Origin: Pseudomonadota bacterium
GTDB lineage: Bacteria; UBA10199; 2-02-FULL-44-16; JAAZCA01
Assembly: GCA_043798915.1 (NCBI GenBank)
Contig: JAZDOG010000063.1
Location: 1 to 21,361 of the forward strand
DNA: 21,361 bases
Direction: 5' to 3'
The notes under the pieces were generated by a model that was given only the letters and a program-made list of their open reading frames with translations, searched no databases and was not told the origin of the DNA. The translations under genes and the position numbers were made by a program. Shown piece by piece: positions 923 to 19,452 of the stretch (positions are counted from its first letter, which is position 1; every line of letters starts with the position of its first letter).

Positions 923-1864
923 TTATGGAACGATCCTCGTCCCCGTCTTTCCATCCAGCGCATCCTCAAGATGCGCCGGGTCGGTGATCAGCGCCTCTTT
1001 GCCACCCATCGAGAGGAAGTTCAAAACCGCCTTGATCTTGGGCAGCATCGAGCCCGGCTTGAAATGGCCCTCTTCGATATATCCTTTCGCCTCGGCAGCG
1101 GTCATCCTGTCTATCGCCTCCTGGTTCGGCTTCCCGAAATTGATGCAGACCTTTTCCACCGCCGTGGAGATGATGAACAGGTCGACCTTCAGCTTGCTGG
1201 CCAGAAGCGCGGACGCGTAGTCCTTGTCGATCACCGCGGCCGTGCCCTGCAGATCGCCCTTTTCATTCCTGACGACCGGAATGCCGCCGCCCCCCACCGC
1301 GATGACGACGATGCCACCGTCGATGAGCTTCCTGATCGCGTCGAATTCCACGATCTCTTTAGGGAGGGGCGACGCGACGACGCGGCGCCACCCGCGGCCC
1401 GCGTCCTCCACGACGTCCCATCCATCTTTTTCCTTGCGCAAGGCAGCCTCTTCCTCCGAGTAAAAGGGCCCTATGGGTTTTGAGGGATCCTTGAACGCGG
1501 GGTCGTCTTTGTCCACGACGACCTGTGTCACCACCGTCACCGCCGACTTTTTTATCCCGCGCCTCTTGAACTCGTTGGCGAGCGCCATCTGGAAATTGTA
1601 TCCGATCGCCCCCTGGGTGTCAGCGCCGCAGGAATCGAGCGGCACCGTGTGCATCTGGTTGCGGGCTATCTCCGAACGCAGGAGGATGAACCCGACCTGG
1701 GGCCCGTTGCCGTGCGTGATGACCACCTCATAGCCCCTCGCTATCATGCCGGCGATGTGCCCCACCGTCTTCGCCACGGCCTCATACTGAGAGGCAACGG
1801 ATTGATGCTTGTTGTCGAGGATTAGAGAATTTCCGCCGACCGCCACGACCGCTTTTTTTGTCAT
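923..1864 (-). CDS. arcC: Carbamate kinase
   Basis: VVAVGGNSL, ITHGNGPQVG, PSKPIGPFY, WRRVVASP, GGGGIPV, AVIDKD and GSMLPK motifs; 313 aa. Confidence 0.97.
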   Translation of the reverse strand: MTKKAVVAVGGNSLILDNKHQSVASQYEAVAKTVGHIAGMIARGYEVVITHGNGPQVGFILLRSEIARNQMHTVPLDSCGADTQGAIGYNFQMALANEFKRRGIKKSAVTVVTQVVVDKDDPAFKDPSKPIGPFYSEEEAALRKEKDGWDVVEDAGRGWRRVVASPLPKEIVEFDAIRKLIDGGIVVIAVGGGGIPVVRNEKGDLQGTAAVIDKDYASALLASKLKVDLFIISTAVEKVCINFGKPNQEAIDRMTAAEAKGYIEEGHFKPGSMLPKIKAVLNFLSMGGKEALITDPAHLEDALDGKTGTRIVP

Positions 1865-1866
1865 AT

Positions 1867-1905
1867 CTCTACCCCACCCTAACCCTCCCCTTACAAAGGG
1901 GAGGG
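1867..1905. repeat. Palindromic intergenic repeat, half copy (copy 1)
   Basis: CTCTACCCCACCCTAACCCTCCCCTTACAAAGGGGAGGG matches the right arms at 2964-3002 and 16279-16317; internal hairpin CCCTCCCCTT-ACA-AAGGGGAGGG. Confidence 0.9.
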
Positions 1906-1915
1906 GACAATAGGT

Positions 1916-2893
1916 TTACATCGTCATCGCCATCACGGCCTTCTGCACGTGCATGCGATTTTCAGCCTCGTCATAGACGACAGAGTGCGGGCCATCGATG
2001 ACCGCATCCGTCACCTCGATATTGCGATCGGCCGGCAGGCAGTGCATGTAGATGCTGTCCGGCTTCGTGAGCTTCATCTTCTTCTCGTCGCAGATCCACG
2101 ATTTGTACTCCTGGGCTATCTTGACGCCCTTGTCGGCGTCCGTCGTTGTGAGCATGCAGCCCCAGCTCTTGGGATAGATGATGTCGGCGTCCCTGAACGC
2201 CCCTTCCATATCGTCCGTCACCTCAAAGCCCGTGTTGTTCTTCTTGGCCTCCGCCCTGGCCTGCTCCATAATCTCCGGCATGAGCTTGAATTCGGGCGGA
2301 TGCGCGAGCACGACGTCGAGGCCGAACCTAGGCATCTGCAGGATCAGGCTCTGCGGCGCCGACATCGGCTTCTGATAGGATGATGCGTACGCCCAGGAGA
2401 CGACCATCTTCTTGCGCTTCAAGTTCCGGCCCTTCTTCTCGATGATGGTCAGGAGATCGGCCAGGCACTGGAACGGATGATAGACCTCGCACTGCATGTT
2501 GAGGACCGGCGTCGGCGAATGCTTCGCCACCTCGTTGATGTATTTGTTGCCGAGCATCCAGTCCACCTCGCGGATCGCGATGCCGTCGAAGTAGCGGCCG
2601 AATATCTCGCCGATCTCCTTGGGCGTATCGCCGTGCGCGATCTGCGTCGTCTTGGAATCGATGAACGCCGCGTGGCCGCCCAGCTGCGCCATGCCGGCCT
2701 CGAATGACCCGCGCGTGCGCGTCGAGCTGAAGAAGAAGAGCATCGCGAGCGTCTTGTCGCGCAGGAGGGCATGGGCCTCGCCGTTCCTGCGCTTCAACTT
2801 GAGATCGATCGCAAGATTGATCACCGCCTCGACCTCTTCCCTGGAAAAATCAAGATCGCCGATGAGATCGCGCCCGCGCAGATTGACTGACAT
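1916..2893 (-). CDS. Carbamoyltransferase of the OTCase superfamily, YgeW/N-acetylornithine (knotted)-type
   Basis: SSTRTR carbamoyl-phosphate motif, HPFQ, MHCLPADR, EAENR. SWAYASSYQKPMSAPQS and YPKSW resemble YgeW (TWAYSPSYGKPLSVPQG, YPKSW). The DxxxSMG ornithine-binding motif of true OTCases is absent. Confidence 0.85.
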   Translation of the reverse strand: MSVNLRGRDLIGDLDFSREEVEAVINLAIDLKLKRRNGEAHALLRDKTLAMLFFFSSTRTRGSFEAGMAQLGGHAAFIDSKTTQIAHGDTPKEIGEIFGRYFDGIAIREVDWMLGNKYINEVAKHSPTPVLNMQCEVYHPFQCLADLLTIIEKKGRNLKRKKMVVSWAYASSYQKPMSAPQSLILQMPRFGLDVVLAHPPEFKLMPEIMEQARAEAKKNNTGFEVTDDMEGAFRDADIIYPKSWGCMLTTTDADKGVKIAQEYKSWICDEKKMKLTKPDSIYMHCLPADRNIEVTDAVIDGPHSVVYDEAENRMHVQKAVMAMTM

Positions 2894-2918
2894 TATGAAT
2901 CCTCCTTATGAATCCTCC
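2893..2918. repeat. Perfect 13-bp tandem duplication covering the ribosome-binding site
   Basis: TTATGAATCCTCC at 2893-2905 and 2906-2918; the minus strand reads AAGGAGGATTCATAAGGAGGATTCATAATG. Confidence 0.9.
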
Positions 2919-2927
2919 TTTTACTCC

Positions 2928-3003
2928 TCCCCTCCTTTGTAAGGAGGGGAAGGGGAGGTAGACCTCTACCCCACCCTAGCCCTCCCCATACAAAGGGGAG
3001 GGA
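2928..3003. repeat. Palindromic intergenic repeat, full copy (copy 2)
   Basis: TCCCCTCCTTTGTAAGGAGGGG...GGTAGA-CC-TCTACCCCACCCT...CCCTCCCCATACAAAGGGGAGGGA; two hairpin arms in inverted orientation. Confidence 0.92.
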
Positions 3004-3012
3004 ATATTAAAT

Positions 3013-3966
3013 TTATTCAACCGCTCCCAGCACCGATGCCAGAAGCGCCATGCGCATCACCACGCCGTTGAAGGCCTCCTGCCAGTAACGGGCGTGGCGC
3101 GTCGCATCCACATCCGGCGGCAGCTCGTCCATCCTCGGCAACGAGTGCAGGACGATGGAATCCGGCTTCGCCTTTTTGGCCAGGAGCTCCCTCGTGACCT
3201 TGTACGCGGCCGGGGTGAGGCCCTTTTTGTCCGTGGCCTCGCAGCGCGCCTTCGTGTAGTCGGGTTGGACGACCGGCTCCATGTAGATGACGTCGGCCTT
3301 GGCTATGACCTGATCGACGTGCTCCGCGACCTCGAAGCGCAGGTTCTTCTCTTTGAGCTCCTCCTTGAACTCCGGTAGGAGGGACATCTCCGGCGGAGAG
3401 ATGTAGATGGCCTGCATGTCGAACTGCGTCATGGCGTAGGAGATCGAGTGCATCGTGCGCATCCTCATATCGCCTATGCACAGCACCGTGAGGCCATCGA
3501 GGCGTCCCTTCTCCTTCCAGATCGTGTACATGTCCGTGAGGACCTGCGTGGGGTGCTCGCCCCAGCCGTCCCCGCAGTTGATGACGGGGACGCTCGACCA
3601 CTTCGCCGCCTCGGCCGACGCGCCCTGCTGAAAATGGCGCATGGCGATGACGTCGCCGTAAAACTCGAGCATGTGGACGGTGTCCTTGATCGATTCCTGA
3701 TAGAAGTCGCCGGCGCGGGTCATCTTCGCGTCGGAAAATCCGAGCACGTGGCCGCCGAGCCTCGCCATCGCCGCCTCGGTGGCCAGCCTCGTGCGCGTGC
3801 TGGGCTGATAGAATGCGGTCAGAAGCGTCTTGTCCTCGAGGATATCGGAATTGCGGCGCTCCCTCGCTATCGGCTCAAGCCTGTCGGCTATCCCGAACAG
3901 ATATTCGTACTCCTCCCGTTCAAATTCCTTCAGCGACAGGATGTCGCGGCCCATGAAACTGCGCAT
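3013..3966 (-). CDS. Aspartate carbamoyltransferase-like protein (pseudo-ATCase; substrate probably not aspartate)
   Basis: FYQPSTRTR, MRH, GDGWGEHPTQ, GDMRMRTMHS and HSLPR indicate the ATCase fold; the KGE loop and the RxQxER motif are replaced (YQES, YMEPVVQPD). GAGGAGG ribosome-binding site. Confidence 0.88.
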   Translation of the reverse strand: MRSFMGRDILSLKEFEREEYEYLFGIADRLEPIARERRNSDILEDKTLLTAFYQPSTRTRLATEAAMARLGGHVLGFSDAKMTRAGDFYQESIKDTVHMLEFYGDVIAMRHFQQGASAEAAKWSSVPVINCGDGWGEHPTQVLTDMYTIWKEKGRLDGLTVLCIGDMRMRTMHSISYAMTQFDMQAIYISPPEMSLLPEFKEELKEKNLRFEVAEHVDQVIAKADVIYMEPVVQPDYTKARCEATDKKGLTPAAYKVTRELLAKKAKPDSIVLHSLPRMDELPPDVDATRHARYWQEAFNGVVMRMALLASVLGAVE

Positions 3967-3997
3967 GTCTCCTCCTCACCAGGTTGGTTATTGGTCA

Positions 3998-5374
3998 TCA
4001 AGCGCCGCGGCGCACAAATCTCCCAAAACCAGGGGCAGCGACAATCCCCTTGCCATCTTCATAGATGACGGCGCCCCGGCACATCGTGAGAACCACCTTG
4101 CCAGTGAACTCCTGGCCCTCGAAGGGCGTGAACTTGCCCTTGGAACCGAATGCCGCGCCCTTGACCTTCCAGCGGGCATCGGGGTTCACGAACACGAAGT
4201 CCGCGTCGGTGTCGACGGCGATCGCGCCCTTGCGCGGATAGAGCCCGAAGCGCCGCGCCGCCGCCGAAGAGGTGACCTCGACGAGCCGCGCGAGCGTCAT
4301 GCGCCCCTTGAGATATCCTTCAGAGAGGGCATAGGGAAAGAGGAGCTCCGTGCCGGAGATGCCGCCGTGGTCCGTCCAGATGCTGCCTGTCTCCTTCTCC
4401 TTCGCCTGACACGGTGAGTGATCGCTGGAGAGAAAATCGATTTCCCCTTCCACGAGATATTTCCAGAGCTTCGCCGAGTCCTCCTTCGTCTTCACGACCG
4501 GCGCGGTCTTGAGTATGGACCCTTTGGCCACAAAGTCTTCATGCGAAAAAGCCAGGTAGTGGATGCAGGTCTCGAGCGTGACGTTTGCGCCGTTCTTCTT
4601 AGCCTCGATGACCAGATCGGCCGCCTTGGCGGAACCGACGTGCACTACATGCAGCGCACAGCCGGTCTCGGTGGCGACCGCAAGCCCCTGTCTCACGCCG
4701 TCCACCTCGGCCGGGTCGCACCTCGCCTCGTAATAGGCCTTGGGGTCCAGACGCCCGAGCGTCTGGAGGCCCGCGGTGCGGCGCTGGACGAGGTCGCGAT
4801 CCTCCGCGTGCAGGCCGACGACGAGCCCCAGCTCATGGGAACGCCTCATCACCTCTACGAGTTCAAGGGGCAGCAGGTGCTCGAAGGAGCGCATGCCGGA
4901 GAGCAGATAGCACTTCACCCCGACGCAGCCCTCGATCTTGAGCTGCCTCACGTGCGAGCGCCAGCCGCTCGTGCGCATGGCGTTGCCGGAGACGCCGCCC
5001 CAGAGCGCAAAGTCGATGACCGACATATCGCCGATGGCGCGGAGCTTGCCCATGAGGCTCGTCCGGTCGGTGACCGGCGGGATGGATGTGTCCGGCATGT
5101 CGATGACGCAGGTGACGCCGCCGGCGGCCGCGCTCATCGAACCGCATATGAATTCCTCGCGGTCCGTGTAGCCGGGGGTGTTGAAGTGGACGTGTGGATC
5201 GATGGCGCCGGGGAGGACGAGGAGGCCGGTGGCGTCGAAGACGTGGCTGCTGCCCGGCGCCCTGGTGGTCGCCGGGATGATATCGCGGACCGCCTCGCCC
5301 TCGACAACGATGTGGACTTTCTGCGTATCGTTGTCCTTGCCAGTCGAGATCGTAGCGTTGGCTATTACCGCCAT
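3998..5374 (-). CDS. Cyclic amidohydrolase (allantoinase / hydantoinase / dihydroorotase family)
   Basis: PGAIDPHVHF (HxH), AAAGGVTCVIDMP, carbamylated-Lys region GVKCY, HAED, HVVH, ETCIHYL, SSDHSP; 458 aa. Confidence 0.92.
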   Translation of the reverse strand: MAVIANATISTGKDNDTQKVHIVVEGEAVRDIIPATTRAPGSSHVFDATGLLVLPGAIDPHVHFNTPGYTDREEFICGSMSAAAGGVTCVIDMPDTSIPPVTDRTSLMGKLRAIGDMSVIDFALWGGVSGNAMRTSGWRSHVRQLKIEGCVGVKCYLLSGMRSFEHLLPLELVEVMRRSHELGLVVGLHAEDRDLVQRRTAGLQTLGRLDPKAYYEARCDPAEVDGVRQGLAVATETGCALHVVHVGSAKAADLVIEAKKNGANVTLETCIHYLAFSHEDFVAKGSILKTAPVVKTKEDSAKLWKYLVEGEIDFLSSDHSPCQAKEKETGSIWTDHGGISGTELLFPYALSEGYLKGRMTLARLVEVTSSAAARRFGLYPRKGAIAVDTDADFVFVNPDARWKVKGAAFGSKGKFTPFEGQEFTGKVVLTMCRGAVIYEDGKGIVAAPGFGRFVRRGA

Positions 5375-5450
5375 CCCTTGAACTCCTGTCTATAAGCGAC
5401 GATATAACACCAAACCCCTGCCTTGCCAACAATCCGTGCAAAAAATGTGT

Positions 5451-6836
5451 TCAAAATCCCCTGCGCTCGCGGATCATGCTGTCCGTGTGCGGCACCCTGG
5501 CCTGCTGCGCCTCCCAGTGCTCGCTGGAGCGCTGGGCGCGCAGCTCCTCGGCCGTCTTCCCCTGCTGTTCCACCCAAGTATAGTACTTGAGGTTGGCCCA
5601 GCAGTCGCGCGCGTGCTGCGTTCCCTCGCGGATGTAGTCCGTCCCCTGCCTGTGGAAGATGGAATCGAGACGCCTCTCTGCCTCGGCGGCATCCATCTTT
5701 CCCTGATCCCTGTTCATCGCTTCGAGGACGCTCAAGTAGCGCTCGGTCGAGTCGGTGGCGATGGTGAAGATGATGTCGTCCTTGCCAAGGTTCCAGTGCT
5801 TCGCAGACTTTATCGCGCCCAGGATGTTGCAGATGCCGGAGATGCCGAAGAGGTCGCGCATGCATTCCAGCCCTGCCCCGTCCTTGCCGTGCTTGGCGAC
5901 GGCTTTCAATCCTGCATCCTCGTGGACGAGCTGCATGCCCTTCTTGCAGTCCCACTCGTCGATGCAGACGATGGCGTCCATATTGTCGGTGTTGTGGATC
6001 CAGGTCACATGCTTGTCGCCGATGCCCTGTATGTCGTGGCCACCGAAGCCGTTGGAGTAAAGCGTCGGGCACTGTATCGGCTCCAGGCCCACGATCCTGC
6101 ATTCGGGATTCGCCTGCTTCACGCGGTCGCCGCACGCTATCGTGCCGGAGGAGCCCATTGCCGACGTGACGGCAGCAAAGCGTTTGCACACGCCCTTGGC
6201 TTTGAGCTCGCCAAAGAGCTCGACCATCGTGTTTCCGGTGACGAAGTAGTGAAAACGGTAATTCGCGAAATCGGCGAACTGGTTGACGATGATGGTGTTC
6301 GGCTCCTTCTCGAGCTCATGCGTCTTGTCGTATATCTCCTTGACGCTGGATTCGCATCCCGGCGTCTTCACGTATTTGGCGCCGTAGTATGTGATCTTGT
6401 CGAAGCGCTCCTTGCTCATCTCCTCTGGCAGGATGACGAGGGAATCGTAGTTCATCCGCTCGCCGACATACGCGCCGCCGACGCCGAAGTTTCCGGTGGA
6501 CGGCCACACGAGCCTGTGTTTCCCGGGGGTGATGGTCCCCGCGACCTGCCGCTCGACTGTGCAGGAATATGTTGGCCCCACCTTGTGGCTGCCTGTCGGA
6601 AATCCGCGGCCGACAAGGACGCAGATATTGGCATCGATGCCCGTGAGCGCTCGGGGCAATATGACGTGCCTTATCCTGTCGTCGCCGTCGCGCCACGTGA
6701 TGTTGAAGAGGTTAAGCGGCGAAAGGGGATCCCCTTCCAGCGCCGGCAGGGCCTTCTTCCGCAGATCGGGCTTTATCTTCGACGGGTGCAGCATCTCCTC
6801 GAACGTCGGACCCCAGACATGATTGCCTTCCGTCAT
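5451..6836 (-). CDS. PLP-dependent enzyme, fold type II (cysteine synthase / TrpB superfamily), 461 aa
   Basis: Start moved to ATG 6836 (ATGA overlap with the upstream stop, GGAGG ribosome-binding site). PTGSHKVG (Schiff-base Lys), WPSTGNFG, GSSGTI phosphate loop, HDIQGIGD. Confidence 0.9.
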   Translation of the reverse strand: MTEGNHVWGPTFEEMLHPSKIKPDLRKKALPALEGDPLSPLNLFNITWRDGDDRIRHVILPRALTGIDANICVLVGRGFPTGSHKVGPTYSCTVERQVAGTITPGKHRLVWPSTGNFGVGGAYVGERMNYDSLVILPEEMSKERFDKITYYGAKYVKTPGCESSVKEIYDKTHELEKEPNTIIVNQFADFANYRFHYFVTGNTMVELFGELKAKGVCKRFAAVTSAMGSSGTIACGDRVKQANPECRIVGLEPIQCPTLYSNGFGGHDIQGIGDKHVTWIHNTDNMDAIVCIDEWDCKKGMQLVHEDAGLKAVAKHGKDGAGLECMRDLFGISGICNILGAIKSAKHWNLGKDDIIFTIATDSTERYLSVLEAMNRDQGKMDAAEAERRLDSIFHRQGTDYIREGTQHARDCWANLKYYTWVEQQGKTAEELRAQRSSEHWEAQQARVPHTDSMIRERRGF

Positions 6837-8179
6837 ATCCGCCTCCATAATTGTTTGGCCAGTTTTCTCGCCTCTTTCGCCACCAGTTCCTCGTCGACCC
6901 CGGCGATTTTGAAATCGCGCATCCTGACTGCGCCGCCGACGATCGCCGTGCGGACCTCGGCGTCGAGCGCGCCGAAGAGGCAGTGCCACCAGGCGTTCTT
7001 TGACGTGATTTCGGTCGGCGGGATGGCGTTTGAAATTATGACGTCCGCAGCGGCGCCCTTCTCGATCGAGCCGACTTTCAGGCCGAACATGTCGGAGACG
7101 ATCTCGGGCGCGGTATCCCACAGCGCATCCCGCGCCTCCAAGGCCCCGGCCTGCGCGTCGCGCGCGCCGATTCTGTGCAGAACGGAGGCGAGCCTCAAAT
7201 CCCCCGCGATGCCTGCGCTCATCCCGTCGGTGCCGACGGCCACGGGGATATTGCGCCGCCGCATCTCGAGGAAGGGTGCGATGCCCACAGCGTTTCCGAG
7301 GTTAGAGAGCGGGCAGTGGACGGCGGTGGCGCCGGACGCTTTGAGGATCGCGATGTCGCGGGAATCGGCGTGGACGCAATGGACAGCGAGCGAGTCCGGC
7401 CTCAAGATCCCCCTCTTCGCCAGCCTCGCGACGGGCGAGGAGCCGTTGAGTTTTTTTGTGGCCTTCACGTCCTCCACACCTTCCGCCACGTGGACGTGCG
7501 CACCGACTTCATAGATTCCCATGAGTTCGCGCGCGGCGTCGAGAGTGCCGTCCGAGAGCGTCATCGACGCATGCAGCCCCACCATCCCGCGCTGCAGAAA
7601 ACCTGGCGCCCGCTCGCGCCGGTGAGCGGCGTTCTCGAGCCAGAGGCCGGACTCGGCCAGGGCTTCATCGCGAGCGCGCTTGCCGGCGCGGTCCGATATC
7701 TCGAAGCAGAGCGAGGCGCGGACGCCGATCTCTGCCAGCGCCTCGGATATGCTGCCCAGCGAGCCGGAGATCGCGCCATAGCTAGCGTGGTGATCGATCA
7801 AGGTCGTGACGCCGGAGCGGATCGAGCTGATTCCACCGAGGAGCGCGCTGATGCGGATGTCGTCGGGCGACAGCGCACGGTCGAGCTTCCACCAGAGCCC
7901 CTCGAGAATTCTGCCGAACGACGGCATCCTTCCGACGGGCATCCCGCGGGCAAGCGCGCTGTACAGATGCATGTGGGGATTGATGAACCCGGGCAGAACG
8001 TAGCGGCCGCCGGCGTCGATGACCCGGGACTTGAGACCTGAGACTTGAGACTTGGGGTTATTCGGGCCGACTTCGGAAATTCTGCCGCCGCTGATATGGA
8101 TGAAGCCGTCGGGATAGACCGGGCCTTTGCCGGTTATCACGCACGCGTTTTTGATTATTATGTCTGCTGAATTGGGCAC
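6833..8179 (-). CDS. ssnA: SsnA-like metal-dependent aminohydrolase
   Basis: PGFINPHMHLYSALARG, LWWKLDRAL, GVTTLIDHHAS, GLHASMTLSD, HVHVAEG and GTDG match the SsnA/chlorohydrolase pattern; GTG start. Confidence 0.85.
   Translation of the reverse strand: MPNSADIIIKNACVITGKGPVYPDGFIHISGGRISEVGPNNPKSQVSGLKSRVIDAGGRYVLPGFINPHMHLYSALARGMPVGRMPSFGRILEGLWWKLDRALSPDDIRISALLGGISSIRSGVTTLIDHHASYGAISGSLGSISEALAEIGVRASLCFEISDRAGKRARDEALAESGLWLENAAHRRERAPGFLQRGMVGLHASMTLSDGTLDAARELMGIYEVGAHVHVAEGVEDVKATKKLNGSSPVARLAKRGILRPDSLAVHCVHADSRDIAILKASGATAVHCPLSNLGNAVGIAPFLEMRRRNIPVAVGTDGMSAGIAGDLRLASVLHRIGARDAQAGALEARDALWDTAPEIVSDMFGLKVGSIEKGAAADVIISNAIPPTEITSKNAWWHCLFGALDAEVRTAIVGGAVRMRDFKIAGVDEELVAKEARKLAKQLWRRI
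8028..8055. repeat. Four tandem 7-bp units inside the ssnA-like gene
   Basis: GACTTGA GACCTGA GACTTGA GACTTGG. Confidence 0.8.
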
Positions 8180-8233: not shown

Positions 8234-10399
8234 TCAAAATGGGGCGATGACAGCCGCGGCTGGGACAGCAAACGGCATCGCCGCCCCGCCAAAATAAACC
8301 GCCTCACTCCCCGTCATCGAGGAAGGGACACCATTTTCGCCACTGACAGCTCGCTCACGGGCGATCCTCGCGGCGAGGCTCGGCCTCTTTTTTCCTTCCA
8401 CGTGCGCCCGATGATACAGGCTGACTCCGGATACGCCGGCGACGATGATCCCGCCGCCGCCCTCCGCGGCCGGGCCTGCGGAACCCCCCGAACCGTTTCC
8501 ACCCGTCGGCGATGAATCGATGATATCCCCCTTGCGCGGGATGACTGTGAATCTGGTGCCCGCGCCTTCTTCGGAATCGACTTCAATCCTCCAACCGAGT
8601 TCCTCGGCCGACCTTTCCGCAAGCCAAAGGTAATTAACTTTTTCTGCGCCTTTCTTCCATGCCCCATTGAGATCCGCTATCCACTTGCCGTTGTCCTCGA
8701 CGACGATGGCCTTTTTTCCCTTGTCCCACCAGACCCTCACGCCGCGCTCCGAGCGCGCAGCGTCATAACGATCCGCAGCGCTCCGAGCGAGACCGAGGAG
8801 AATCTGATCCGCCCTCTCAAAAACGAGCCCATCCCTGTAGCGAAGGCCATGTGGCAGATCGACGTCAATCCTCACGCCTGACTTGAAAGCCTGGACGGCC
8901 ACCGGGAGGAGAACCTGGGTCGTTCGGTCGCGGAGATTGAGGGTCCTGCGGTCGTATGTGGCGAAGTCCGAGAGAATCTTGAGGACCCTCGCCTCCCCGG
9001 TTTTAGGAACGGCCCCAAGCGCGACAAGGCGCCTGAAGAGCTCGCCGTGGACCCGAACCACAATTTCCGTTTGCGAATCAAGGGCATCGCCAAACACCCT
9101 TTCAAAGATGAACATAAGCGTCCAGGCAGGTCCAAGCCATGTATCGCGCGCGTATCGAAGAGCATCTTCCCGGCTCTTGCCGCCGGCCATGACGCCCGGG
9201 GCTATCCTTGCAAAGACACCATTGAAAAACCCCTTCGCCCGCTGTTCAAACTTATCGGGTTTGCTTATGCCCAAAAGCTCTCTCAGGAAATCGCCATTGA
9301 CCGGCAACTCCCTGGCCGGGCCGGCAAGGATGGAATCACTCGATGCGATCCGAGTAATAAAATTGGCCGATTCCTCATCTCCGCTGGCAGCGTATACCGC
9401 AAGATCAGCCAGGCCATCTCCCAGGGCTTTTACACCTGGAAACGTCGCCGGCAATTCGGTTGTGAGGAGCTCTGCGGGAAAACCGTCATCCGGGCGAGGA
9501 ACTGCAGCGACTGACACAAGGGTCGCAAAGCGTTCTGGAGAAATTCCTGGTCCCGCGCTCCAATCGCTCATGTCTATCTCCAGGCGAACTGTGGTCCCGC
9601 GGCCTGGCTCCGACTCGACCTCGGCCTTACCCCCAAGCGCTTCAGTTGTCGCTTCGGGCGCATTTCGCCGAAGCAGATTCTCCGTATCCTCCAGAATTTT
9701 ATCGTCCGAACGAGAGTGCGTGCCGATCAGCTCCAGGATCATGTTCGCGAAAAGGGCAAAATGGCCGAAGAGCATCTCCTTGAAGGAGCGGTCCCTTGGG
9801 AATGATGCGTCGAAGATGCGGCTGGCCACCCACAGCGGCCCCCGCGCGATCTCCTCTGCGTATACGACCGCACGGGCCCTCCCTTCGTTCCCGGACATGA
9901 TCTCATCTGCGATCCTCAATTTGACGCCTGTGTAAAACTCTCTCACCATTTGGCGAAACACGCCCGGGTCGGGCTCGCTGTGGAGGGACTTTAAAAAATG
10001 GAGGCTCTCGCTGGTGCGGAGCGCCGTGCCGGCGAGCAGGGCGTTGCTTTTGGCAAGGCTGTGCAGCTCCTGCTTTTTGCTATCATCATCCAATGCAGCG
10101 ATGGAGAGTTTGGAGAGCTCATCCACGAGATATTCCAGCTCATCCCTTTCTTCCGGCAGATTCCTTACGGAGAGCGCCGACATGATTTCCTCAGGCGAAC
10201 CAAAAAGCCTGCCGCTCCACCAGACGATCCCCCTGCCATTTGCGTCTCCAAAGACAAAGCGTTGATGCATGATGCCACTCGGGACATAGCTGTCGACTGC
10301 TGCGCCTTGAGGCTCGCGTGGCTGGTCAGACTTCGGCAACAGCCAGGCAGGCAATATGCTGCGCAAAAATTTCCCCACAGGACCCGACTTCATTCCCAT
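8234..10399 (-). CDS. Large hypothetical protein (721 aa): two ~105-aa repeat modules, degenerate HATPase_c domain, Gly-rich linker and conserved C-terminal tag
   Basis: Long ORF with AGAGG ribosome-binding site; IVVEDNG and LGWRIEVDSEEGAGTRFTVIP resemble histidine-kinase ATPase boxes; paralogous to 10419..12575. Confidence 0.8.
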   Translation of the reverse strand: MGMKSGPVGKFLRSILPAWLLPKSDQPREPQGAAVDSYVPSGIMHQRFVFGDANGRGIVWWSGRLFGSPEEIMSALSVRNLPEERDELEYLVDELSKLSIAALDDDSKKQELHSLAKSNALLAGTALRTSESLHFLKSLHSEPDPGVFRQMVREFYTGVKLRIADEIMSGNEGRARAVVYAEEIARGPLWVASRIFDASFPRDRSFKEMLFGHFALFANMILELIGTHSRSDDKILEDTENLLRRNAPEATTEALGGKAEVESEPGRGTTVRLEIDMSDWSAGPGISPERFATLVSVAAVPRPDDGFPAELLTTELPATFPGVKALGDGLADLAVYAASGDEESANFITRIASSDSILAGPARELPVNGDFLRELLGISKPDKFEQRAKGFFNGVFARIAPGVMAGGKSREDALRYARDTWLGPAWTLMFIFERVFGDALDSQTEIVVRVHGELFRRLVALGAVPKTGEARVLKILSDFATYDRRTLNLRDRTTQVLLPVAVQAFKSGVRIDVDLPHGLRYRDGLVFERADQILLGLARSAADRYDAARSERGVRVWWDKGKKAIVVEDNGKWIADLNGAWKKGAEKVNYLWLAERSAEELGWRIEVDSEEGAGTRFTVIPRKGDIIDSSPTGGNGSGGSAGPAAEGGGGIIVAGVSGVSLYHRAHVEGKKRPSLAARIARERAVSGENGVPSSMTGSEAVYFGGAAMPFAVPAAAVIAPF
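8381..8492. repeat. Near-identical DNA segment shared with 10551-10725
   Basis: 8381-8458 vs 10551-10628: 78 bp with 3 mismatches. 8453-8492 vs 10686-10725: 40 bp identical. Confidence 0.95.
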
Positions 10400-10418: not shown

Positions 10419-12575
10419 TTACGGGACTACTGCGGGGATCGGTGGTGCCACAACAGCACCGCCGACAAAAACCGCCGCGCTATTTTCAAAAGGGCCGTCT
10501 GTTCCGTCACGATGAGCAGCCCGCTCGCGGGCAAGCCTCACAGCGACACCCGGCCTCTTTTTTCCTTCCACGTGCGCCCGATGATGCAGACTGACTCCGG
10601 ATACGCCGGCGACGATGACCCCGCCGCCTGCCTGCCCCGACGCCGCTGCCCCCGATGAAGGAACCGGCGCAGCGCCGCTTCCCGCGCCGCCGCCCTCCGC
10701 GGCCGGGCCTGCGGAACCCCCCGAATTGCTCCCGCCCGGAGCCTTCGGTGGTTTTGTCGCTTCATCGCCGGTCTCGATCGCATCGGCACGCCTTGCCGGC
10801 GCAGCCTCCGGCAGAAAGTGCTTGATGAATTCGATGAGCGGGCCGGGGATGATGTGGTCGAGCGCCCACGCGACTCCAGCGGCTCCCGCGAGGGCAAGGC
10901 CCGATGCGATGGAAATGGTCGCATCGGCCGGGCCGTAGGCCGCCTGCCCGCCTGCTGCCAAAGCCTCCGCAGGCGCATCCTCCGGCGCGGCCTGGGCCAT
11001 GCGCCGGCTAAGACTTGTGCCGCGATAGGCGCGCGCGCCCTCCGCATCGGCCTTCTTTTCCGTGATGCTTCCCGGCGGCGGCACGATAATAACGGACCCC
11101 GATCTATAGATCAGCCTCCACTCCTTTGGGAGTTCGACGGAAGAGAGATCCGGAATTCGACCAGTCGATGCGACGACCTCAATGCCGCCCGCCTCACCGA
11201 ACTTCACCCATCCGATCTTTATCGTCCGATCGCCGGAGAGTTTTTTGTCGGCGGCTATTGCGGAGCGGACTATCGACCGAAGCGGCGCGTCGAGGCGCGA
11301 CGCCGATTCCGCGTCTTTGAAGCCGAGGCTGGAGGGGATATCGAATTCGACTCCGATCCCGGCCCTCTGTGCTTCAAAGAGCTCCGCGCCCAGCGCGCCG
11401 ACGGCGCGGCTGTTCAGAGATGCCACGGCAAAGAAGCTGTGCAGAAAGCTCGTGGAGCCAAGCCATTCCCTGAGGGCCTCTTCGGAGGTCAATGAGGGAT
11501 CCTGTGCAGTGTTTTCAAGCATGGCATACATAGCGATCTGCGTGCCAGCGAGATTCGCCTCCATGTCGCTGCGGTCAAAACCCATGCGATCGTACAGCAG
11601 CTTAATCGCCGCAAAAGGCCCGCGCGCCATCTCCATCGCGCGCGTCCTCGCCTGCTCTGAGGCGTCGCCGCCGGAGGCGATTCCCGCTGCCATCTCGACT
11701 GCGGCCCTCCGGTAGAGATCGAGGGCCCGTGAGTTCCACTCCGCAGGATCGGGGGCTAAGGCCACGCGCCTCATGATCTCCAGATGCTCGATCACGCGCG
11801 CGGCGGTCCCGGCGAGCGCCGCGTCGCTTCCAGCCAGCCACCGAAGCGCCTCGAGCGCCCCGGCGTCGCCGCGGACCGCGGCGGCCGAGAAGTGGGCCAG
11901 CGTCCTGAAGGCCCCAGAGCTGCGTTCGTAGAGACCCTCCATCCGTCCGCGCAACATCAGCTCGCGCGGCAAACGGCCGGGGGGTTGCTTGGGGAGGCCG
12001 GAGCCGGGGATTGGACTCGCACGGAAATCATCCGGGCCGGCGGGGGGATCGGCGCGGTCGAAGCTTCTGATAAAGAGATCAAGGATGCCGTGTGAGAAAA
12101 AACCGCTATGAACGTCGCTCCCCCCGAGAAGCGAGTCGTCTTTATTCGCAAAGCGCCGTGAGTATATGAGGCGCGCCGCCCACAGCGGACCCAGAGCGAA
12201 GTCCCTGATATACGCACCGCCCAGCTCGCCGTCCGCGCGGTAGCTGGTCGCGCCAGGCTCCATAATCGTTCCGCCGGACCCCATCATGAACTTGCCATTG
12301 ACGCGGGCCATGAACTTTTCCGGTTCGTCCATCCCGAGCAAAAGCTCGAGGTCCTTTCGGCTGTCGAGGATTCTCCGCGCGGCGCCTGCAAAGGGCGATT
12401 CGCTGACCGCGATCTCCTCGAGCCTTCGCGCCGCACCCTCGCTGCCATCCGCCATCTCCATGGCGAGCCGGGCAAGATCATCCGCAGTTGGCCCGCCGGA
12501 GAAGGCCCGCAGCGCGACTGATGCGCCACCGGCCAGAAACGACTCGGCAATTTCGAATATCGACTTTATGCCCAT
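10419..12575 (-). CDS. Large hypothetical protein (718 aa), paralog of 8234..10399
   Basis: Same MG(I/M)KS start, same repeat module twice, a more eroded HATPase-like segment, Ala/Gly/Pro-rich linker and the same C-terminal tag. Confidence 0.8.
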   Translation of the reverse strand: MGIKSIFEIAESFLAGGASVALRAFSGGPTADDLARLAMEMADGSEGAARRLEEIAVSESPFAGAARRILDSRKDLELLLGMDEPEKFMARVNGKFMMGSGGTIMEPGATSYRADGELGGAYIRDFALGPLWAARLIYSRRFANKDDSLLGGSDVHSGFFSHGILDLFIRSFDRADPPAGPDDFRASPIPGSGLPKQPPGRLPRELMLRGRMEGLYERSSGAFRTLAHFSAAAVRGDAGALEALRWLAGSDAALAGTAARVIEHLEIMRRVALAPDPAEWNSRALDLYRRAAVEMAAGIASGGDASEQARTRAMEMARGPFAAIKLLYDRMGFDRSDMEANLAGTQIAMYAMLENTAQDPSLTSEEALREWLGSTSFLHSFFAVASLNSRAVGALGAELFEAQRAGIGVEFDIPSSLGFKDAESASRLDAPLRSIVRSAIAADKKLSGDRTIKIGWVKFGEAGGIEVVASTGRIPDLSSVELPKEWRLIYRSGSVIIVPPPGSITEKKADAEGARAYRGTSLSRRMAQAAPEDAPAEALAAGGQAAYGPADATISIASGLALAGAAGVAWALDHIIPGPLIEFIKHFLPEAAPARRADAIETGDEATKPPKAPGGSNSGGSAGPAAEGGGAGSGAAPVPSSGAAASGQAGGGVIVAGVSGVSLHHRAHVEGKKRPGVAVRLARERAAHRDGTDGPFENSAAVFVGGAVVAPPIPAVVP
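10551..10725. repeat. Second copy of the shared C-terminal-tag DNA, with 63 extra bp
   Basis: Direct alignment with 8381-8492; the extra 63 bp lie between GCCGCC direct repeats (10623-10628 and 10686-10691). Confidence 0.95.
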
Positions 12576-16358: not shown

Positions 16359-17102
16359 TCATCCGCGGAAAAGCCGGCGGATAGCATGTCCCGTGGCAAT
16401 CCATCCCAGTCGCGCGACGGACTCGCCCAGCGGTATCCCCTTGGGGCACGCGGCCTCGCACGCCTCGGCGCCGGCGCAGTCGGAGATTCCGCCGCGCTGC
16501 AGGAGCGCATCGAGCTTCTCGCCCCTGCCCATGCGACCGATCGGATGCTCGAGGAGCGGAAGGGTCTGGCTGAAGAGAAATGCCCCGGCAAATTGCGATC
16601 TGGCGTTCACCTGAGGGCACGCCTCGGAGCAGGCGCCGCACATTATGCAGCTTGCGAAACGCTTCATCCCCTCATGCTCTTCAGGCGAAACCCTGATGGC
16701 CGGACCACCGCCCGGGACACCATCTATCCCGACCCACGCCCGCGATCTCTCGAGGGCGTCGAACATGCGCTGCCTGTCCACCTTGAGATCCCTGACGATC
16801 GGAAACTTCGAGAGCGGTTCGAGCACCACCGGCGAAGACAGATCTTCGACGGGCGTGTGGCAAGCGAGCCCGACCCTCCCGTTTATGATCATCGCGCACG
16901 CACCGCACATCCCCTCCATGCATGTTGTCTCCCACACGACAGGCGCGGTCGGATTCCCGTCGGCGGTGACGGGTTTTTCCCGCACAGCACGGAGCGCGGT
17001 GGCTACCGTCATCCCGGCCTTAAACTCGACATCGAATATCTCCCAGTATGGAAGATCCTCAGGGTCGTCCTGCCGCTTGATTTTCAGAGATATGGTTTTC
17101 AT
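16359..17102 (-). CDS. sdhB: Succinate dehydrogenase / fumarate reductase iron-sulfur subunit
   Basis: Start moved to ATG 17102 (GGAG ribosome-binding site). CMEGMCGAC...LAC (2Fe-2S), LEPLSKFPIVRDLKVDR, CIMCGACSEACP, CAGAEACEAACPKGI. Confidence 0.93.
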   Translation of the reverse strand: MKTISLKIKRQDDPEDLPYWEIFDVEFKAGMTVATALRAVREKPVTADGNPTAPVVWETTCMEGMCGACAMIINGRVGLACHTPVEDLSSPVVLEPLSKFPIVRDLKVDRQRMFDALERSRAWVGIDGVPGGGPAIRVSPEEHEGMKRFASCIMCGACSEACPQVNARSQFAGAFLFSQTLPLLEHPIGRMGRGEKLDALLQRGGISDCAGAEACEAACPKGIPLGESVARLGWIATGHAIRRLFRG

Positions 17103-18816
17103 CCAAAATCTCCACCCTCTCGGAATGATCGAGCGCAAACCCATCGGCGGATTTGCGGGCGACCGTCGTCACGAGCCATTTTTTGTCGTTTCGCTCCGGG
17201 TGGGCCGGTTTGAAATGGGCGCCGCGGCTCTCCTCCCTCGCGATCGAGGCGGCGACGAAAAGCCTTGCGAGCACGAGGTCCGATCTGCACCTGCGCATAA
17301 ACGGCAGTTCGCCATTTGCCCACTCCGCGCGGTCCGCGATGGGCGCGCGTCCGAAGCGATCGGATATCTCATCGATCTTCTCCGCAGCCTTCGCCAGGGC
17401 CTTATTGTCCTTCGCAACCAAGGCGGCCGCGGCGAGCGCGCCGCAGAGTTCGGCCTTGAGGGCATGCGCGCTCTCATCCCCTTCCTGTCCGGAAAAATGG
17501 GAGTTCACATCCTCCTCGCGGCTCTTTGCAGACTCGAACAGGGAAACCGGCGCCTCTGATTGAAGGCCAAGCCCATGCGCGTGCCTCGCTGCGCTCCTGC
17601 CTGCTATCATTCCGCCATAGGCCGACGCCAGGAGTTCGTTCCCGCCGAGCGTCCCCGCGCCGTGGTACTGCGAGGCGGACGAGCCCGCCGCAAAGAGGCC
17701 GGGGATGCTCGCGTAGTGTTCGGCATCCACCCGGAGCCCGCCGAGCGTCTGATGCGCGGCGGGAACGACCCTCATCGGCGAGGCTAAAGGATCCTCGCCG
17801 GTCAATCTCCCGTAGATATCCATCGCCTCGCCGAAGTTTGCATCGAGCCAGTCAGGGTCGACCGCAGAGAGGTCGAGGAAGGCTTCGGGGCCGCCCTCCC
17901 CCTCGGGTGCGGCCTCGCGCCACGCATCCCACATCGCGCGCACGGCGACGTCGCGCGGCAGGCGCGCGCCATGCGAGGGGAATTTCTCCTCCAGGAAGTG
18001 CGATTGCCTTCCATCGCGCCGGATCGAGACGCGCGCGCCGGCGCAGATGACCGCGTCGCCGACCGGGATGCGCTTGTCCGCTGTCTCGATCGCAAATGGA
18101 TGAAACTCGACGAATTCGGGGTTGGCGAAGAGAGAGCCCTGTTCAAAGCACGCAACGGAAGCGGAGCCACCGCTCGATGGGTTGCTGCTGTACGGACCGA
18201 ATATGCCTGCGTATCCCCCCGCGCATATTATCACGGCATCGGCGGGGAAGGATTTCACTTCCATGTTCCTGAGATTCATAGCCACGGCGCCGCGACAGGT
18301 TCCGGCATCGTCGACGACGAGCGACAAAAACTCCCATCCCTCCAGGAGGGAGAGCCTCTCTTCCGAAGCGAGGCGGCGCAGTTGGCCATCCAGCGCCGAT
18401 ACGACCCCGTGCCCCGTGCCCCAGCCAGCCGCGGCCGTGCGCGCAGCCTGCGCACCGCACGAAAAACCCTGCGCGATGAGACCGTCGCGCGTCCTGCCGA
18501 ACATCACGCCCATGCGGTCGAACATATGCGCGATCGAAGGCGCAGCCTCGCACATCTTCATGACCGGCCCCTGGTGCGCAAGAAACCCTCCGCACACGAC
18601 GGTATCGCGCGCATGCGACGCCGCGGAATCGCCCTCTCCCTGGGAATCGAGCGCTGCGTTAAACCCGTCGTGGATGCAAGATGAGCGCGAGCGCCTCGGC
18701 GGCACGGAGGCGACGAGCATGACCTCCGCGCCATCATGCACCGCGGAGAGCGCGGCCATGCAGCCCGAAACTCCGCCGCCGACAACGATGATTTTGGATC
18801 TCTTCTTCGATGGCAT
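17059..18816 (-). CDS. sdhA: Succinate dehydrogenase / fumarate reductase flavoprotein homolog with divergent active site
   Basis: IIVVGGGVSG FAD motif, FANPEFVEFHP, PRDVAVR, HQTLGG, GLFAAG, REESRGAHFKP; lies between the cytochrome b and Fe-S genes. Confidence 0.88.
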   Translation of the reverse strand: MPSKKRSKIIVVGGGVSGCMAALSAVHDGAEVMLVASVPPRRSRSSCIHDGFNAALDSQGEGDSAASHARDTVVCGGFLAHQGPVMKMCEAAPSIAHMFDRMGVMFGRTRDGLIAQGFSCGAQAARTAAAGWGTGHGVVSALDGQLRRLASEERLSLLEGWEFLSLVVDDAGTCRGAVAMNLRNMEVKSFPADAVIICAGGYAGIFGPYSSNPSSGGSASVACFEQGSLFANPEFVEFHPFAIETADKRIPVGDAVICAGARVSIRRDGRQSHFLEEKFPSHGARLPRDVAVRAMWDAWREAAPEGEGGPEAFLDLSAVDPDWLDANFGEAMDIYGRLTGEDPLASPMRVVPAAHQTLGGLRVDAEHYASIPGLFAAGSSASQYHGAGTLGGNELLASAYGGMIAGRSAARHAHGLGLQSEAPVSLFESAKSREEDVNSHFSGQEGDESAHALKAELCGALAAAALVAKDNKALAKAAEKIDEISDRFGRAPIADRAEWANGELPFMRRCRSDLVLARLFVAASIAREESRGAHFKPAHPERNDKKWLVTTVARKSADGFALDHSERVEILDENHISENQAAGRP

Positions 18817-18819
18817 ATT

Positions 18820-19434
18820 CTAAAATGCGAGGATCACCCTCGCGCCCCACCCTGCAAGAATGATCGTCACTACCCACATTGCCATCGCCGCCGCGTCCTG
18901 CGCGCGGCGGGAGGCGGTGATCCCCCATCTCGTGAGCGCAAAAGAGATGCCGTTCCCTATGTGAAACGCGGCGCACGCGACGCCGGCGCCGTAGATCGCC
19001 TTCACCCACGAGGGGGCCAGGAGCTTTTGCATGTACGCGAATTCGGCATGCCTCCCCGTGAAGGCGAAGACGAGCTCGGTGGTGTAGATGTAATGGATTA
19101 TCGGCACGATGACCAGAATGCCAGTCAGGCGCTGAAGGGCGTACATCCAGTTGCGGTACGACGAAAAGGCGATGACGTTGAACTGCGAGCTGTAGATGAC
19201 CGACAGGCCGACCGCCGCATGGAACATGAGAGGGGCGACGACGAAGACCATTTTGATCGCTGAGAGGAGCGGGACCTTTTCCCCGATTGCGGCAACGAGA
19301 TTGAAAGAGGAAGCCCCGCCCAGCGCGGCCGAGCATGGTATGAGGAAGAAGGCGATATAGCCGACGGAGAGGAGTATGCCCGACAGCGAATGCAGGCGTC
19401 TGAGCCAGAAGTATCCTGTCCCCGCGGTTCCCAT
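18820..19434 (-). CDS. sdhC: Diheme cytochrome b558 membrane anchor of SDH/FRD (Bacillus-type)
   Basis: LRRLHSLSG, FHAAVG, NWMYALQRLTG, IIHY, FHIGNGI, WGI: five TM segments and four His ligands; the second ATG (19434) is best spaced from GGAGG. Confidence 0.92.
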   Translation of the reverse strand: MGTAGTGYFWLRRLHSLSGILLSVGYIAFFLIPCSAALGGASSFNLVAAIGEKVPLLSAIKMVFVVAPLMFHAAVGLSVIYSSQFNVIAFSSYRNWMYALQRLTGILVIVPIIHYIYTTELVFAFTGRHAEFAYMQKLLAPSWVKAIYGAGVACAAFHIGNGISFALTRWGITASRRAQDAAAMAMWVVTIILAGWGARVILAF

Positions 19435-19452
19435 GTCCATCCTCCCGAGGGG

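Follow-up and report, generated by a model that had tools for sequence, protein, structure and literature searches.

The window analysed here is a stretch of 21,361 nucleotides that makes up the whole of contig C27 (JAZDOG010000063.1) in the genome of a Pseudomonadota bacterium (2.34 Mb on 105 contigs, estimated to be 97% complete), and it contains a cluster of six genes coding for an SsnA-like amidohydrolase, a CysK-like pyridoxal phosphate (PLP) enzyme, an allantoinase-like cyclic amidohydrolase, two different carbamoyltransferases (TC1 and TC2), and the carbamate kinase ArcC. On balance we favour the interpretation that this cluster provides the hydrolytic and energy-yielding half of the reductive urate/purine pathway, with TC2 performing the step of YgeW, TC1 performing the step of YgeY by phosphorolysis, and the CysK-like enzyme and/or a ThrC-like one replacing DpaL. 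The pathway is already known, and a pseudo-aspartate carbamoyltransferase (pseudo-ATCase) paired with a ygeW homologue had been noticed by 2013; the cluster described here is an environmental variant with a second transferase. An earlier note on this DNA, made from the letters alone, had described six co-oriented genes, and all six are confirmed at its coordinates, on the minus strand (Table 1).

The reductive urate pathway was solved in 2025, in gut bacteria only, and the variant in the window appears to be a common environmental form of it. According to the two 2025 reports, urate is converted to 2,8-dioxopurine by XdhD, and reduction (by YgfK, or UacX in Clostridioides difficile) together with ring opening by SsnA yields ureidomethyl-hydantoin; HyuA then forms 2,3-diureidopropionate, YgeW acts on this by phosphorolysis with the carbamoyl phosphate passing to ATP through YqeA, and YgeY hydrolysis leaves diaminopropionate, from which YgeX makes pyruvate (PMC12507026; bioRxiv 10.1101/2025.04.24.650524). 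Formation of ATP from 2,3-diureidopropanoate by YgeW and YqeA is reported by Liu et al. (bioRxiv 10.1101/2025.04.24.650524). The window cluster shares its step logic with the cluster of Escherichia coli and Clostridium sporogenes (xdhD-ygfM, ygfK, ssnA, hyuA, ygeW, yqeA, ygeY, ygeX), the common elements being a probable ring opening of the SsnA type, a cyclic amidohydrolase, phosphorolytic transfer coupled to carbamate kinase, reduction of the ring, and a fold-type-II PLP enzyme at the end, with candidate molybdenum hydroxylases encoded in the genome. In contrast to that cluster, no YgeW, YgeY, YgeX/DpaL, YgfK or HyuA family member scores over its cut-off here, and the cluster uses a split PreT/PreA reductase, an allantoinase-like hydantoinase, two transferases from other branches of the superfamily, and CysK-like and ThrC-like PLP enzymes.

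The ring reductase is recognised across a contig join. The first 141 nucleotides of the window, when reverse-complemented, match the first 141 nucleotides of contig C54 exactly, and this overlap therefore shows that arcC is followed by a ring reductase of split, YgfK-like type and by another PLP enzyme, extending the cluster past position 923. The open reading frame at the very end of the window encodes a product that, along 81 residues, has 74% identity to the start of the GltD/PreT-like protein in a syntenic locus (L107, see below), and beyond the join C54 carries the rest of this PreT/GltD-like gene, a PreA/PydA-like gene with DHO_dh and 4Fe-4S domains, a ThrC-like PLP gene, and a gene for an H+-pyrophosphatase. 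The ring-reductase feature of the reductive urate cluster is thereby present in substitute form only, as the PreT/GltD-like and DHO_dh/4Fe-4S genes across the C27–C54 join, and no YgfK scores over the cut-off in the genome (best 321.8 against 835.3). Two molybdenum enzymes of the xanthine dehydrogenase (XDH) family, with MoCoBD genes, are encoded away from the cluster, one on contig C20 (with XdhC, a MocA-like gene and an FAD subunit) and one on contig C31. ArcC is the sole carbamate kinase of the genome (a single tblastn match). The cluster had been described as having no ygeY, which is borne out, and the search of the rest of the genome that the earlier note proposed for ygfK, ygeY, dpaL and xdh gave only the XDH-family enzymes: YgeY is absent from both window and genome (best 72.9 bits against 321.5), as is DpaL from the genome (21.3 bits against 274), and no HyuC/AllC-type carbamoylase scores over the cut-off there (25.9 bits against 204). 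The assignment of the cluster to the SsnA-type anaerobic purine pathway, also made in that note, gains support from the ring reductase adjoining across the join and from the presence of SsnA in 44 of the 50 TC1-carrying genomes surveyed below.

A metagenome scan with the window's SsnA-like protein found two loci that are the closest syntenic relatives reaching far enough for comparison. L107 encodes SsnA-like (63% identical), CysK-like (70%) and allantoinase-like (70%) proteins, followed by a bona fide YgeY (530 bits, the cut-off being 321), two open reading frames of unknown function, a TC2-like protein (43%) and a PreT-like gene; L108 has MltG, the same three genes (53%, 69% and 71%), and YgeY (417 bits against 321, cut by the contig end). 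The window has these three front genes with TC1, TC2 and arcC behind them instead, TC1 lying exactly at the position of YgeY, and MltG is located further upstream. The YgeY position of the relatives is, in this lineage, taken by the TC1 cassette, and of all the observations this one speaks most directly for a replacement.

TC1 passes the ATCase equivalog model (Table 1) and scores below the cut-off of a second one (NF002032, 224.7 against 263), although its residues suggest that it would be unable to bind aspartate in the usual way. In an alignment with the P. abyssi ATCase (1ML4), the segment KKGE becomes FYQE after a two-residue insertion (K84 to Y), TRIQKER becomes EPVVQPD (R229 to P, Q231 to V), and HPLPR becomes HSLPR; STRTR, the RH of R105, HPTQ, and the arginine of ‘RT’ (the R167 equivalent) are retained. 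The changed segments are invariant or nearly so among 80 aligned family members. In E. coli ATCase numbering, we take K84 and R229 to be the residues that hold the beta-carboxylate of aspartate, and R167 the one that holds its alpha-carboxylate. With the K84 and R229 equivalents lost and that of R167 kept, TC1 has the appearance of a distinct second transferase whose substrate is an alpha-amino acid lacking an acidic side chain. The name pseudo-ATCase, already given to this gene in the earlier note, is apt, since other residues stand in the positions of K84, R229 and Q231 and a real pyrB–pyrC pair is found elsewhere. This pair is on contig C76 and a genuine argF is on contig C80, each about 33% identical to TC1 or TC2 (33% between TC1 and the genome's own PyrB).

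These genes bear on a conventional explanation, in which TC1 and the cyclic amidohydrolase are an ordinary ATCase and dihydroorotase, working in biosynthesis or in reverse orotate fermentation, and TC2 and ArcC form an arginine/citrulline module. The equivalog score of TC1 and the public name of its relatives, aspartate carbamoyltransferase, agree with it, but it is scarcely credible given the genuine pyrB–pyrC and argF genes, the family-wide replacement of the aspartate side-chain residues, the departure of TC2 from the ornithine motif of ornithine carbamoyltransferase (OTCase), and the context of the 80 surveyed loci, which is one of purines and neither of pyrimidines nor of arginine. An ordinary ATCase with a dihydroorotase was rejected on the first two of these grounds.

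TC1 relatives are numerous and widely spread. The 120 best database clusters matching TC1 are 77–100% identical to it (the 100% match being the window's own protein) and carry the source name aspartate carbamoyltransferase, which is probably a systematic mis-annotation. At least 588 confirmed matching stretches are present in the species-representative genome collection. The 80 loci that were kept (L019–L098) are 72–81% identical to the window TC1 and come from metagenome-assembled genomes (MAGs) labelled as at least six phyla, including Anaerolineae and other Chloroflexota, Actinomycetota, Verrucomicrobiia (Verrucomicrobiota), Phycisphaerae (Planctomycetota), Zixibacteria, and Coprothermobacterota. 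Overall, TC1 identities across several phyla span 72–90%. We note that this conservation is unusually high for a metabolic enzyme.

The neighbourhoods of these 80 loci were surveyed by tblastn with the window proteins and proteins from two of the loci, and the first 50 of the 80 genomes, a best-match rather than a random sample, were searched genome-wide; 301 Chloroflexota genomes of at least 85% completeness form an even control. Downstream sequence of at least 2.5 kb is available for 67 of the 80 loci. TC2 comes after TC1 at a distance of no more than 2.6 kb in 59 of them all, and in 53 arcC is next, no further than 1 kb away; an arrangement kept to this extent is not due to chance. A typical operon in Anaerolineae has an 8-oxoguanine-deaminase-like gene, adenine deaminase, GntR, sometimes YgeY, TC1, TC2, arcC, a PnrA-type ABC transporter, and a ThrC-like PLP gene, and at other TC1 loci too there are adenine deaminase and 8-oxoguanine-deaminase-like genes and ABC transporters of the purine-nucleoside type. 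In locus L061 the whole pathway is present, with two XDH sets, ThrC-like and CysK-like PLP genes, an F420-type LLM reductase, YgeY, TC1, TC2, arcC, a true SsnA (523 bits), and HyuA (487 bits); an F420 variant in Chloroflexota is mentioned by Li et al. (PMC12507026). Among the 50 genomes, SsnA is matched at E ≤ 1e-90 in 44 (over the cut-off in 38), and DpaL is over the cut-off in none, with one truncated candidate. SsnA is present in 52 and TC1 in 21 of the 301 Chloroflexota; SsnA is found in 15 of the 21 TC1-positive and 37 of the 280 TC1-negative genomes.

Near relatives of the window's organism mostly lack TC1. It is absent from all 21 genomes of the same family or order and is present in one of nine of the same class, where an allantoinase-like gene and XDH are nearby. 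With TC1 and TC2 80% identical to the genes of other phyla and TC1 carried by just one of 30 relatives, the cassette looks acquired, and TC1-TC2-arcC is a highly conserved unit that appears to be horizontally mobile.

TC2 was called YgeW-like in the earlier note, which as a family assignment is wrong. It scores far below the cut-offs of the YgeW models (TIGR03316, 202.2 bits against 500; NF005538, 207.2 against 453) and is 325 residues long, compared with the 391–396 positions of those models. The best scores are to OTCase models (258–260 bits; TIGR00658, 258.3 against 280.85) and to that of N-acetylornithine carbamoyltransferase (AOTCase; NF003384, 250.7 against 288), all under their cut-offs. 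The DxxxSMG motif, which we take to be the ornithine-binding motif of OTCase, is missing from TC2: DVWASMG in the P. furiosus OTCase corresponds to PKSWGCM in TC2. The KSWG segment is common to TC2 and the AOTCase 3L04, with DVWxSMG at this place in OTCase. TC2 is present in 49 of the 52 SsnA-positive Chloroflexota, in 35 of the 37 without TC1 and 14 of the 15 with it, and often adjoins YgeY; its presence in those 35 TC1-negative genomes therefore suggests that it is a general stand-in for YgeW that works without TC1. Forty-four of the 50 TC1 genomes have a TC2 match, and the three that encode a true YgeW are all among the remaining six, so the expectation that a second transferase accompanies the pseudo-ATCase is upheld. 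Taken by its distribution, TC2 is the probable functional stand-in for YgeW in environmental SsnA genomes.

The close association of the two transferases, which are adjacent in 59 of the 80 loci and both unusually conserved (70–80% across phyla), could also be accounted for if they formed one hetero-oligomer, or if TC1 were a non-catalytic partner, so that together they would equal YgeW and release one carbamoyl phosphate only. Carbamoyltransferases are homotrimers, however, and TC1 and TC2 are just 32% identical; TC1 keeps all of the carbamoyl-phosphate-binding motifs, and each occurs apart from the other, TC2 alone in those 35 of the 37 TC1-negative SsnA genomes and TC1 with a true YgeW instead of TC2 in three genomes. 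These independent distributions disfavour an obligate heteromer, and we regard this arrangement as very improbable.

Enzymes resembling TC1 were named pseudo-ATCases by Barba et al. in 2013 (PMC4016543), before the diureidopropionate pathway was described. The closest match is to their subgroup 2 (Nocardioides sp. JS614), where the gene adjoins a ygeW homologue, xdhABC and hyuA and was assigned no function by these authors; subgroup 1 is represented by Rubrobacter Rxyl_2847, a proposed ureidoglycine carbamoyltransferase. TC1 has the defining features of the group, with STRT and HPTQ kept, RXQ lost (PVV is found at this position), and HPLP changed to a form of H[ST]LP, and it likewise has an adjoining second transferase, a purine-catabolic context and a carbamate kinase nearby. 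Compared with the motif descriptions of the Barba groups, the fourth motif is neither GX[SC] nor cleanly VXP, PVV being in register and VQP two residues further on, so that TC1 may belong to subgroup 2 or to subgroup 3.

The SsnA-like protein is below the cut-offs of both SsnA models (TIGR03314, 392.8 bits against 455.5; NF005540, see Table 1), but SsnA is its best family by about 200 bits, the next scoring 209.7. It is 37% identical to the bona fide SsnA of L061, and its nearest relatives (50–65%) have the gene order of the window (L107–L110). Its probable task is to open the reduced dioxopurine at the six-membered ring. The cyclic amidohydrolase is 29% identical to the HyuA of L061, 70–71% identical to the copies in L107 and L108, and 46% identical to the copy in a class relative (G076). 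It narrowly passes one allantoinase model, TIGR03178, and falls short of two others (NF004839, 382.3 bits against 631; NF005960, 263.4 against 688) and of the D-hydantoinase model (TIGR02033, 260 against 393). Because it is located where HyuA would be, we assign it the opening of the ureidomethyl-hydantoin ring as its probable function.

An allantoinase score raises the alternative of an allantoin/allantoate route, in which the amidohydrolase would form allantoate (diureidoacetate), TC1 would convert allantoate and phosphate to ureidoglycine and carbamoyl phosphate, TC2 would act on the second ureido group or on oxalurate, and ArcC would make ATP. Such a role was proposed by Barba et al. (PMC4016543) for a pseudo-ATCase beside allantoinase and carbamate kinase in Rubrobacter, and it suits an amidohydrolase that is over the TIGR03178 cut-off and fails as a D-hydantoinase. 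We nonetheless find it quite improbable, as the other two allantoinase models are failed widely, and the route has no role for the SsnA-like gene, the PreT/PreA reductase, or the two PLP enzymes. Moreover, the hydrolase of the syntenic relatives is of the YgeY family and not AllC-type, an allantoinase-like gene at 35% identity or more is present in none of the 80 TC1 loci, and TC1 has HSLP where the allantoinase-linked group 1 of Barba et al. has HPLA.

The CysK-like PLP enzyme scores 119 bits with the cysK/cysM models, far under their cut-offs, and it recurs beside SsnA or TC1, with 65–70% identity in L107–L110, 58% in L061 and 39–45% at many other loci. It is a candidate for replacing DpaL/YgeX in full or in part. 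The SsnA-like query retrieved 63 loci, and in 14 of these (L111, L115–L122, L125, L127–L130) ThrC-like and then CysK-like PLP genes directly follow SsnA, often with XDH upstream. DpaL is over the cut-off neither in the window's genome nor in any of the 50 TC1 genomes. The ThrC-like and CysK-like pair seems to be the environmental replacement for YgeX.

The relationship of TC1 to YgeY is less simple than the window and its closest relatives suggest. The mutual exclusion of ygeY and the pseudo-ATCase that the earlier note predicted is refuted, and in its strict form we reject it: YgeY is over the cut-off in 15 of the 50 TC1 genomes (with one further truncated copy), is within 10 kb of TC1 in 17 of the 80 loci, and is present in 11 of the 15 TC1-positive SsnA genomes of the even sample. 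That homologous clusters routinely carry ygeY, which the earlier note would have counted against its reading, is thus true in part. The inference of that note, by which the ATCase-derived transferase takes the place of the hydrolase and two carbamoyl phosphates and two ATP result, is partly supported. In its favour, YgeY occupies the position of TC1 in L107 and L108, neither YgeY, DpaL nor a HyuC-type carbamoylase is encoded in this 97%-complete genome, and 35 of the 50 TC1 genomes are likewise missing YgeY, which is over the cut-off in 34 of the 37 TC1-negative SsnA genomes of the even sample. At three Anaerolineaceae/Chloroflexota loci (L050, L053 and L091) the order is TC1, TC2, YgeY, with YgeY in the usual place of arcC and no arcC in the stretch examined.

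Several of these observations, and some others, weigh against the interpretation we favour. YgeY is directly upstream of TC1 in 13 of the 17 loci where the two are close, and YgeY, TC1 and TC2 form one block in many genomes, which makes three enzymes for two ureido groups; a gene pair this tight could represent two enzymes working on different substrates. In the even sample YgeY is present in 45 of the 52 SsnA genomes, the 11 of 15 with TC1 comparing with 34 of 37 without it, a difference that is not significant (Fisher p = 0.17). Six of the 21 TC1-positive Chloroflexota have no strong SsnA match. Most of the genomes are MAGs, in which a gene may be missing only because the assembly is incomplete, and relatives do not count as independent cases. 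With the SsnA-like protein below the SsnA cut-offs and the hydantoinase scoring best as an allantoinase, the true substrate of the cluster could differ. The intermediates of the pathway are proposed to be R (D-configured) (bioRxiv 10.1101/2025.04.24.650524; PMC12990295), whereas ATCases use L-aspartate. Finally, Li et al. and Liu et al. disagree on which ureido group YgeW removes, a question that the commentary by Percudani lists as open (PMC12990295), and the assignment of TC1 and TC2 to their steps is uncertain to that degree.

The frequent adjacency of YgeY and TC1, and their joint presence in 11 of 15 genomes and 17 of 80 loci, would fit complementary roles, in which the cluster still serves reductive purine breakdown and TC1 phosphorolyses some carbamoyl compound of the pathway other than the substrate of YgeY. 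Its substrate could then be the exocyclic ureido group of ureidomethyl-hydantoin, a ring-opened 5-ureido-dihydrouracil (a minor product), or the other stereoisomer of the diureido acid, hydantoins being able to racemise; in this organism TC2, or a hydrolase that escaped recognition, would then take off the second ureido group. It is in keeping with such a substrate that SsnA gives two products in vitro (Li et al., PMC12507026). We consider this, the foremost of the alternatives, unlikely, because YgeY is missing from at least 35 of the 50 TC1 genomes as well as from this one, and YgeY and TC1 swap positions in otherwise syntenic operons. With neither YgeY nor HyuC/AllC encoded here, some other enzyme has to take off the second ureido group, and among the conserved genes TC1 alone is a candidate for this.

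Returning to phosphorolysis of both ureido groups, the sequences show which genes are present, the families they fall in, the altered active-site residues, and the gene order and joint occurrence across genomes, whereas every substrate and the ATP yield in the following scheme are inferred. A molybdenum hydroxylase encoded elsewhere in the genome would make the dioxopurine, the adjacent PreT/PreA-type reductase would dearomatise it, the SsnA-like enzyme would open the six-membered ring, and the allantoinase-like enzyme would open the hydantoin ring to give 2,3-diureidopropionate. TC2 would then remove one ureido group with phosphate, probably the 3-ureido group by analogy with N-acetylcitrulline, and TC1 would remove the remaining N-alpha-carbamoyl group with phosphate, a step that YgeY performs hydrolytically in E. 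coli. Both carbamoyl phosphates would pass to the single carbamate kinase for up to two ATP per purine, and the CysK-like and/or ThrC-like PLP enzymes would convert 2,3-diaminopropionate to pyruvate and ammonia in the place of DpaL. More tentatively, and with rather less conviction than for the cluster as a whole, TC1-TC2-ArcC can be seen as a mobile ‘ATP-upgrade’ cassette, which by double phosphorolysis of 2,3-diureidopropionate would double the ATP to two per purine and make YgeY discardable.

The proposed assignment has a bearing on the order of ureido cleavage. TC2 is AOTCase-like, and would be suited to the side-chain ureido group of an N-alpha-acylated amino acid, and TC1 is ATCase-derived, as would suit an alpha-N-carbamoyl group; this ancestry is consistent with the order of Liu et al. 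If the scheme is correct, the ancestry of TC1 and TC2 favours that order and gives a testable handle on the question left by the Percudani commentary (PMC12990295). TC1 and TC2 would also represent two new substrate specificities in the carbamoyltransferase superfamily, two large families annotated as aspartate or ornithine carbamoyltransferase would gain their true functions, and phosphorolysis of both ureido groups would double the substrate-level ATP of purine fermentation in these organisms.

Related systems show parts of the same design. In the C. difficile variant described by Li et al. (PMC12507026), with the PydA-like reductase UacX and the D-aminoacylase-like hydrolase UacY, a DHO_dh-type reductase replaces YgfK as it does in the window, and the ring reductase and the ureido-cleaving steps are seen to be interchangeable modules; as presented there, that variant is fully hydrolytic with no transferase or carbamate kinase, whereas the window cluster is apparently fully phosphorolytic. 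The arginine and agmatine deiminase pathways, with a catabolic OTCase or a putrescine carbamoyltransferase and a carbamate kinase, couple ureido phosphorolysis to ATP as is proposed here, but in them a single transferase acts on a substrate with a single ureido group, where the window has two different transferases before one kinase. Li et al. (PMC12507026) colour every PF00185 protein as ‘YgeW’, which would not separate TC1, TC2 and YgeW. Among the titles, abstract openings and passages covered, we found no publication that describes a variant with two transferases, separates these three or proposes double phosphorolysis, although supplements may show such clusters. The contig join that adds the reductase, the positional swap of YgeY and TC1, the role of TC2 as a general YgeW stand-in, and the negative result on mutual exclusion are new here.

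The features of the cluster are listed in Table 1.

Table 1. Features of the purine cluster and its downstream end in the window.
Feature	Coordinates	Strand	Basis
SsnA-like amidohydrolase	6833-8179	minus	NF005540, 418.7 bits against cut-off 444
CysK-like fold-type-II PLP enzyme	5451-6836 or 5451-6848	minus	PF00291, 82 bits
Allantoinase-like cyclic amidohydrolase	3998-5374	minus	TIGR03178, 364.5 bits against 357.85
TC1, pseudo-ATCase	3013-3966	minus	TIGR00670, 248.3 bits against 236.95
TC2, carbamoyltransferase of the OTCase/AOTCase/YgeW branch	1916-2893	minus	Below every family cut-off
Carbamate kinase ArcC	923-1864	minus	NF009007, 436.5 bits against 266; TIGR00746, 389.6 against 358.25
Lys/Glu/Thr-rich open reading frame, 191 residues, signal-peptide-like hydrophobic N-terminus	341-916	minus	Open reading frame list
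Terminator-like hairpin	288-322	minus	15 pairs, 10 of them G-C, then a T-run
PreT/GltD-like Fe-S flavoprotein, first 82 codons (ring-reductase subunit)	1-246	minus	Gene continues on contig C54

The six genes are closely spaced. The SsnA-like and PLP genes have an ATGA-type overlap of 4 nucleotides, or one of 16 nucleotides if the PLP gene starts at 6848 instead of 6836, and the subsequent gaps are 76 nucleotides (PLP to amidohydrolase), 31 (amidohydrolase to TC1), 119 (TC1 to TC2), and 51 (TC2 to arcC). The 191-residue open reading frame downstream of arcC has no Pfam or NCBIfam match and may be outside the pathway. The hairpin between it and the reductase gene is the strongest terminator-like one of the region, and the reductase genes may therefore be a separate transcription unit. 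A promoter scan upstream of the cluster gave nothing usable, and an Rfam scan of the window found no riboswitch or other RNA family.

Upstream of the cluster, between MltG and the SsnA-like gene, are genes for two paralogous proteins of about 720 residues (8234–10399 and 10419–12575, minus strand) with no family match other than a weak one of 35 bits to HATPase_c in one of them. They share a Gly-rich C-terminal tail (58% identity over 64 residues), and since nothing separates MltG from the SsnA-like gene in the syntenic locus L108, the pair looks inserted. Further upstream, a minus-strand gene at 17059–19440 codes for a succinate dehydrogenase/fumarate reductase flavoprotein (best 526 bits against 855, below all NCBIfam cut-offs); the gene preceding it encodes a cytochrome b subunit of the b558 type, and RuvX, MltG and PpiC-type isomerase genes nearby form a housekeeping context.

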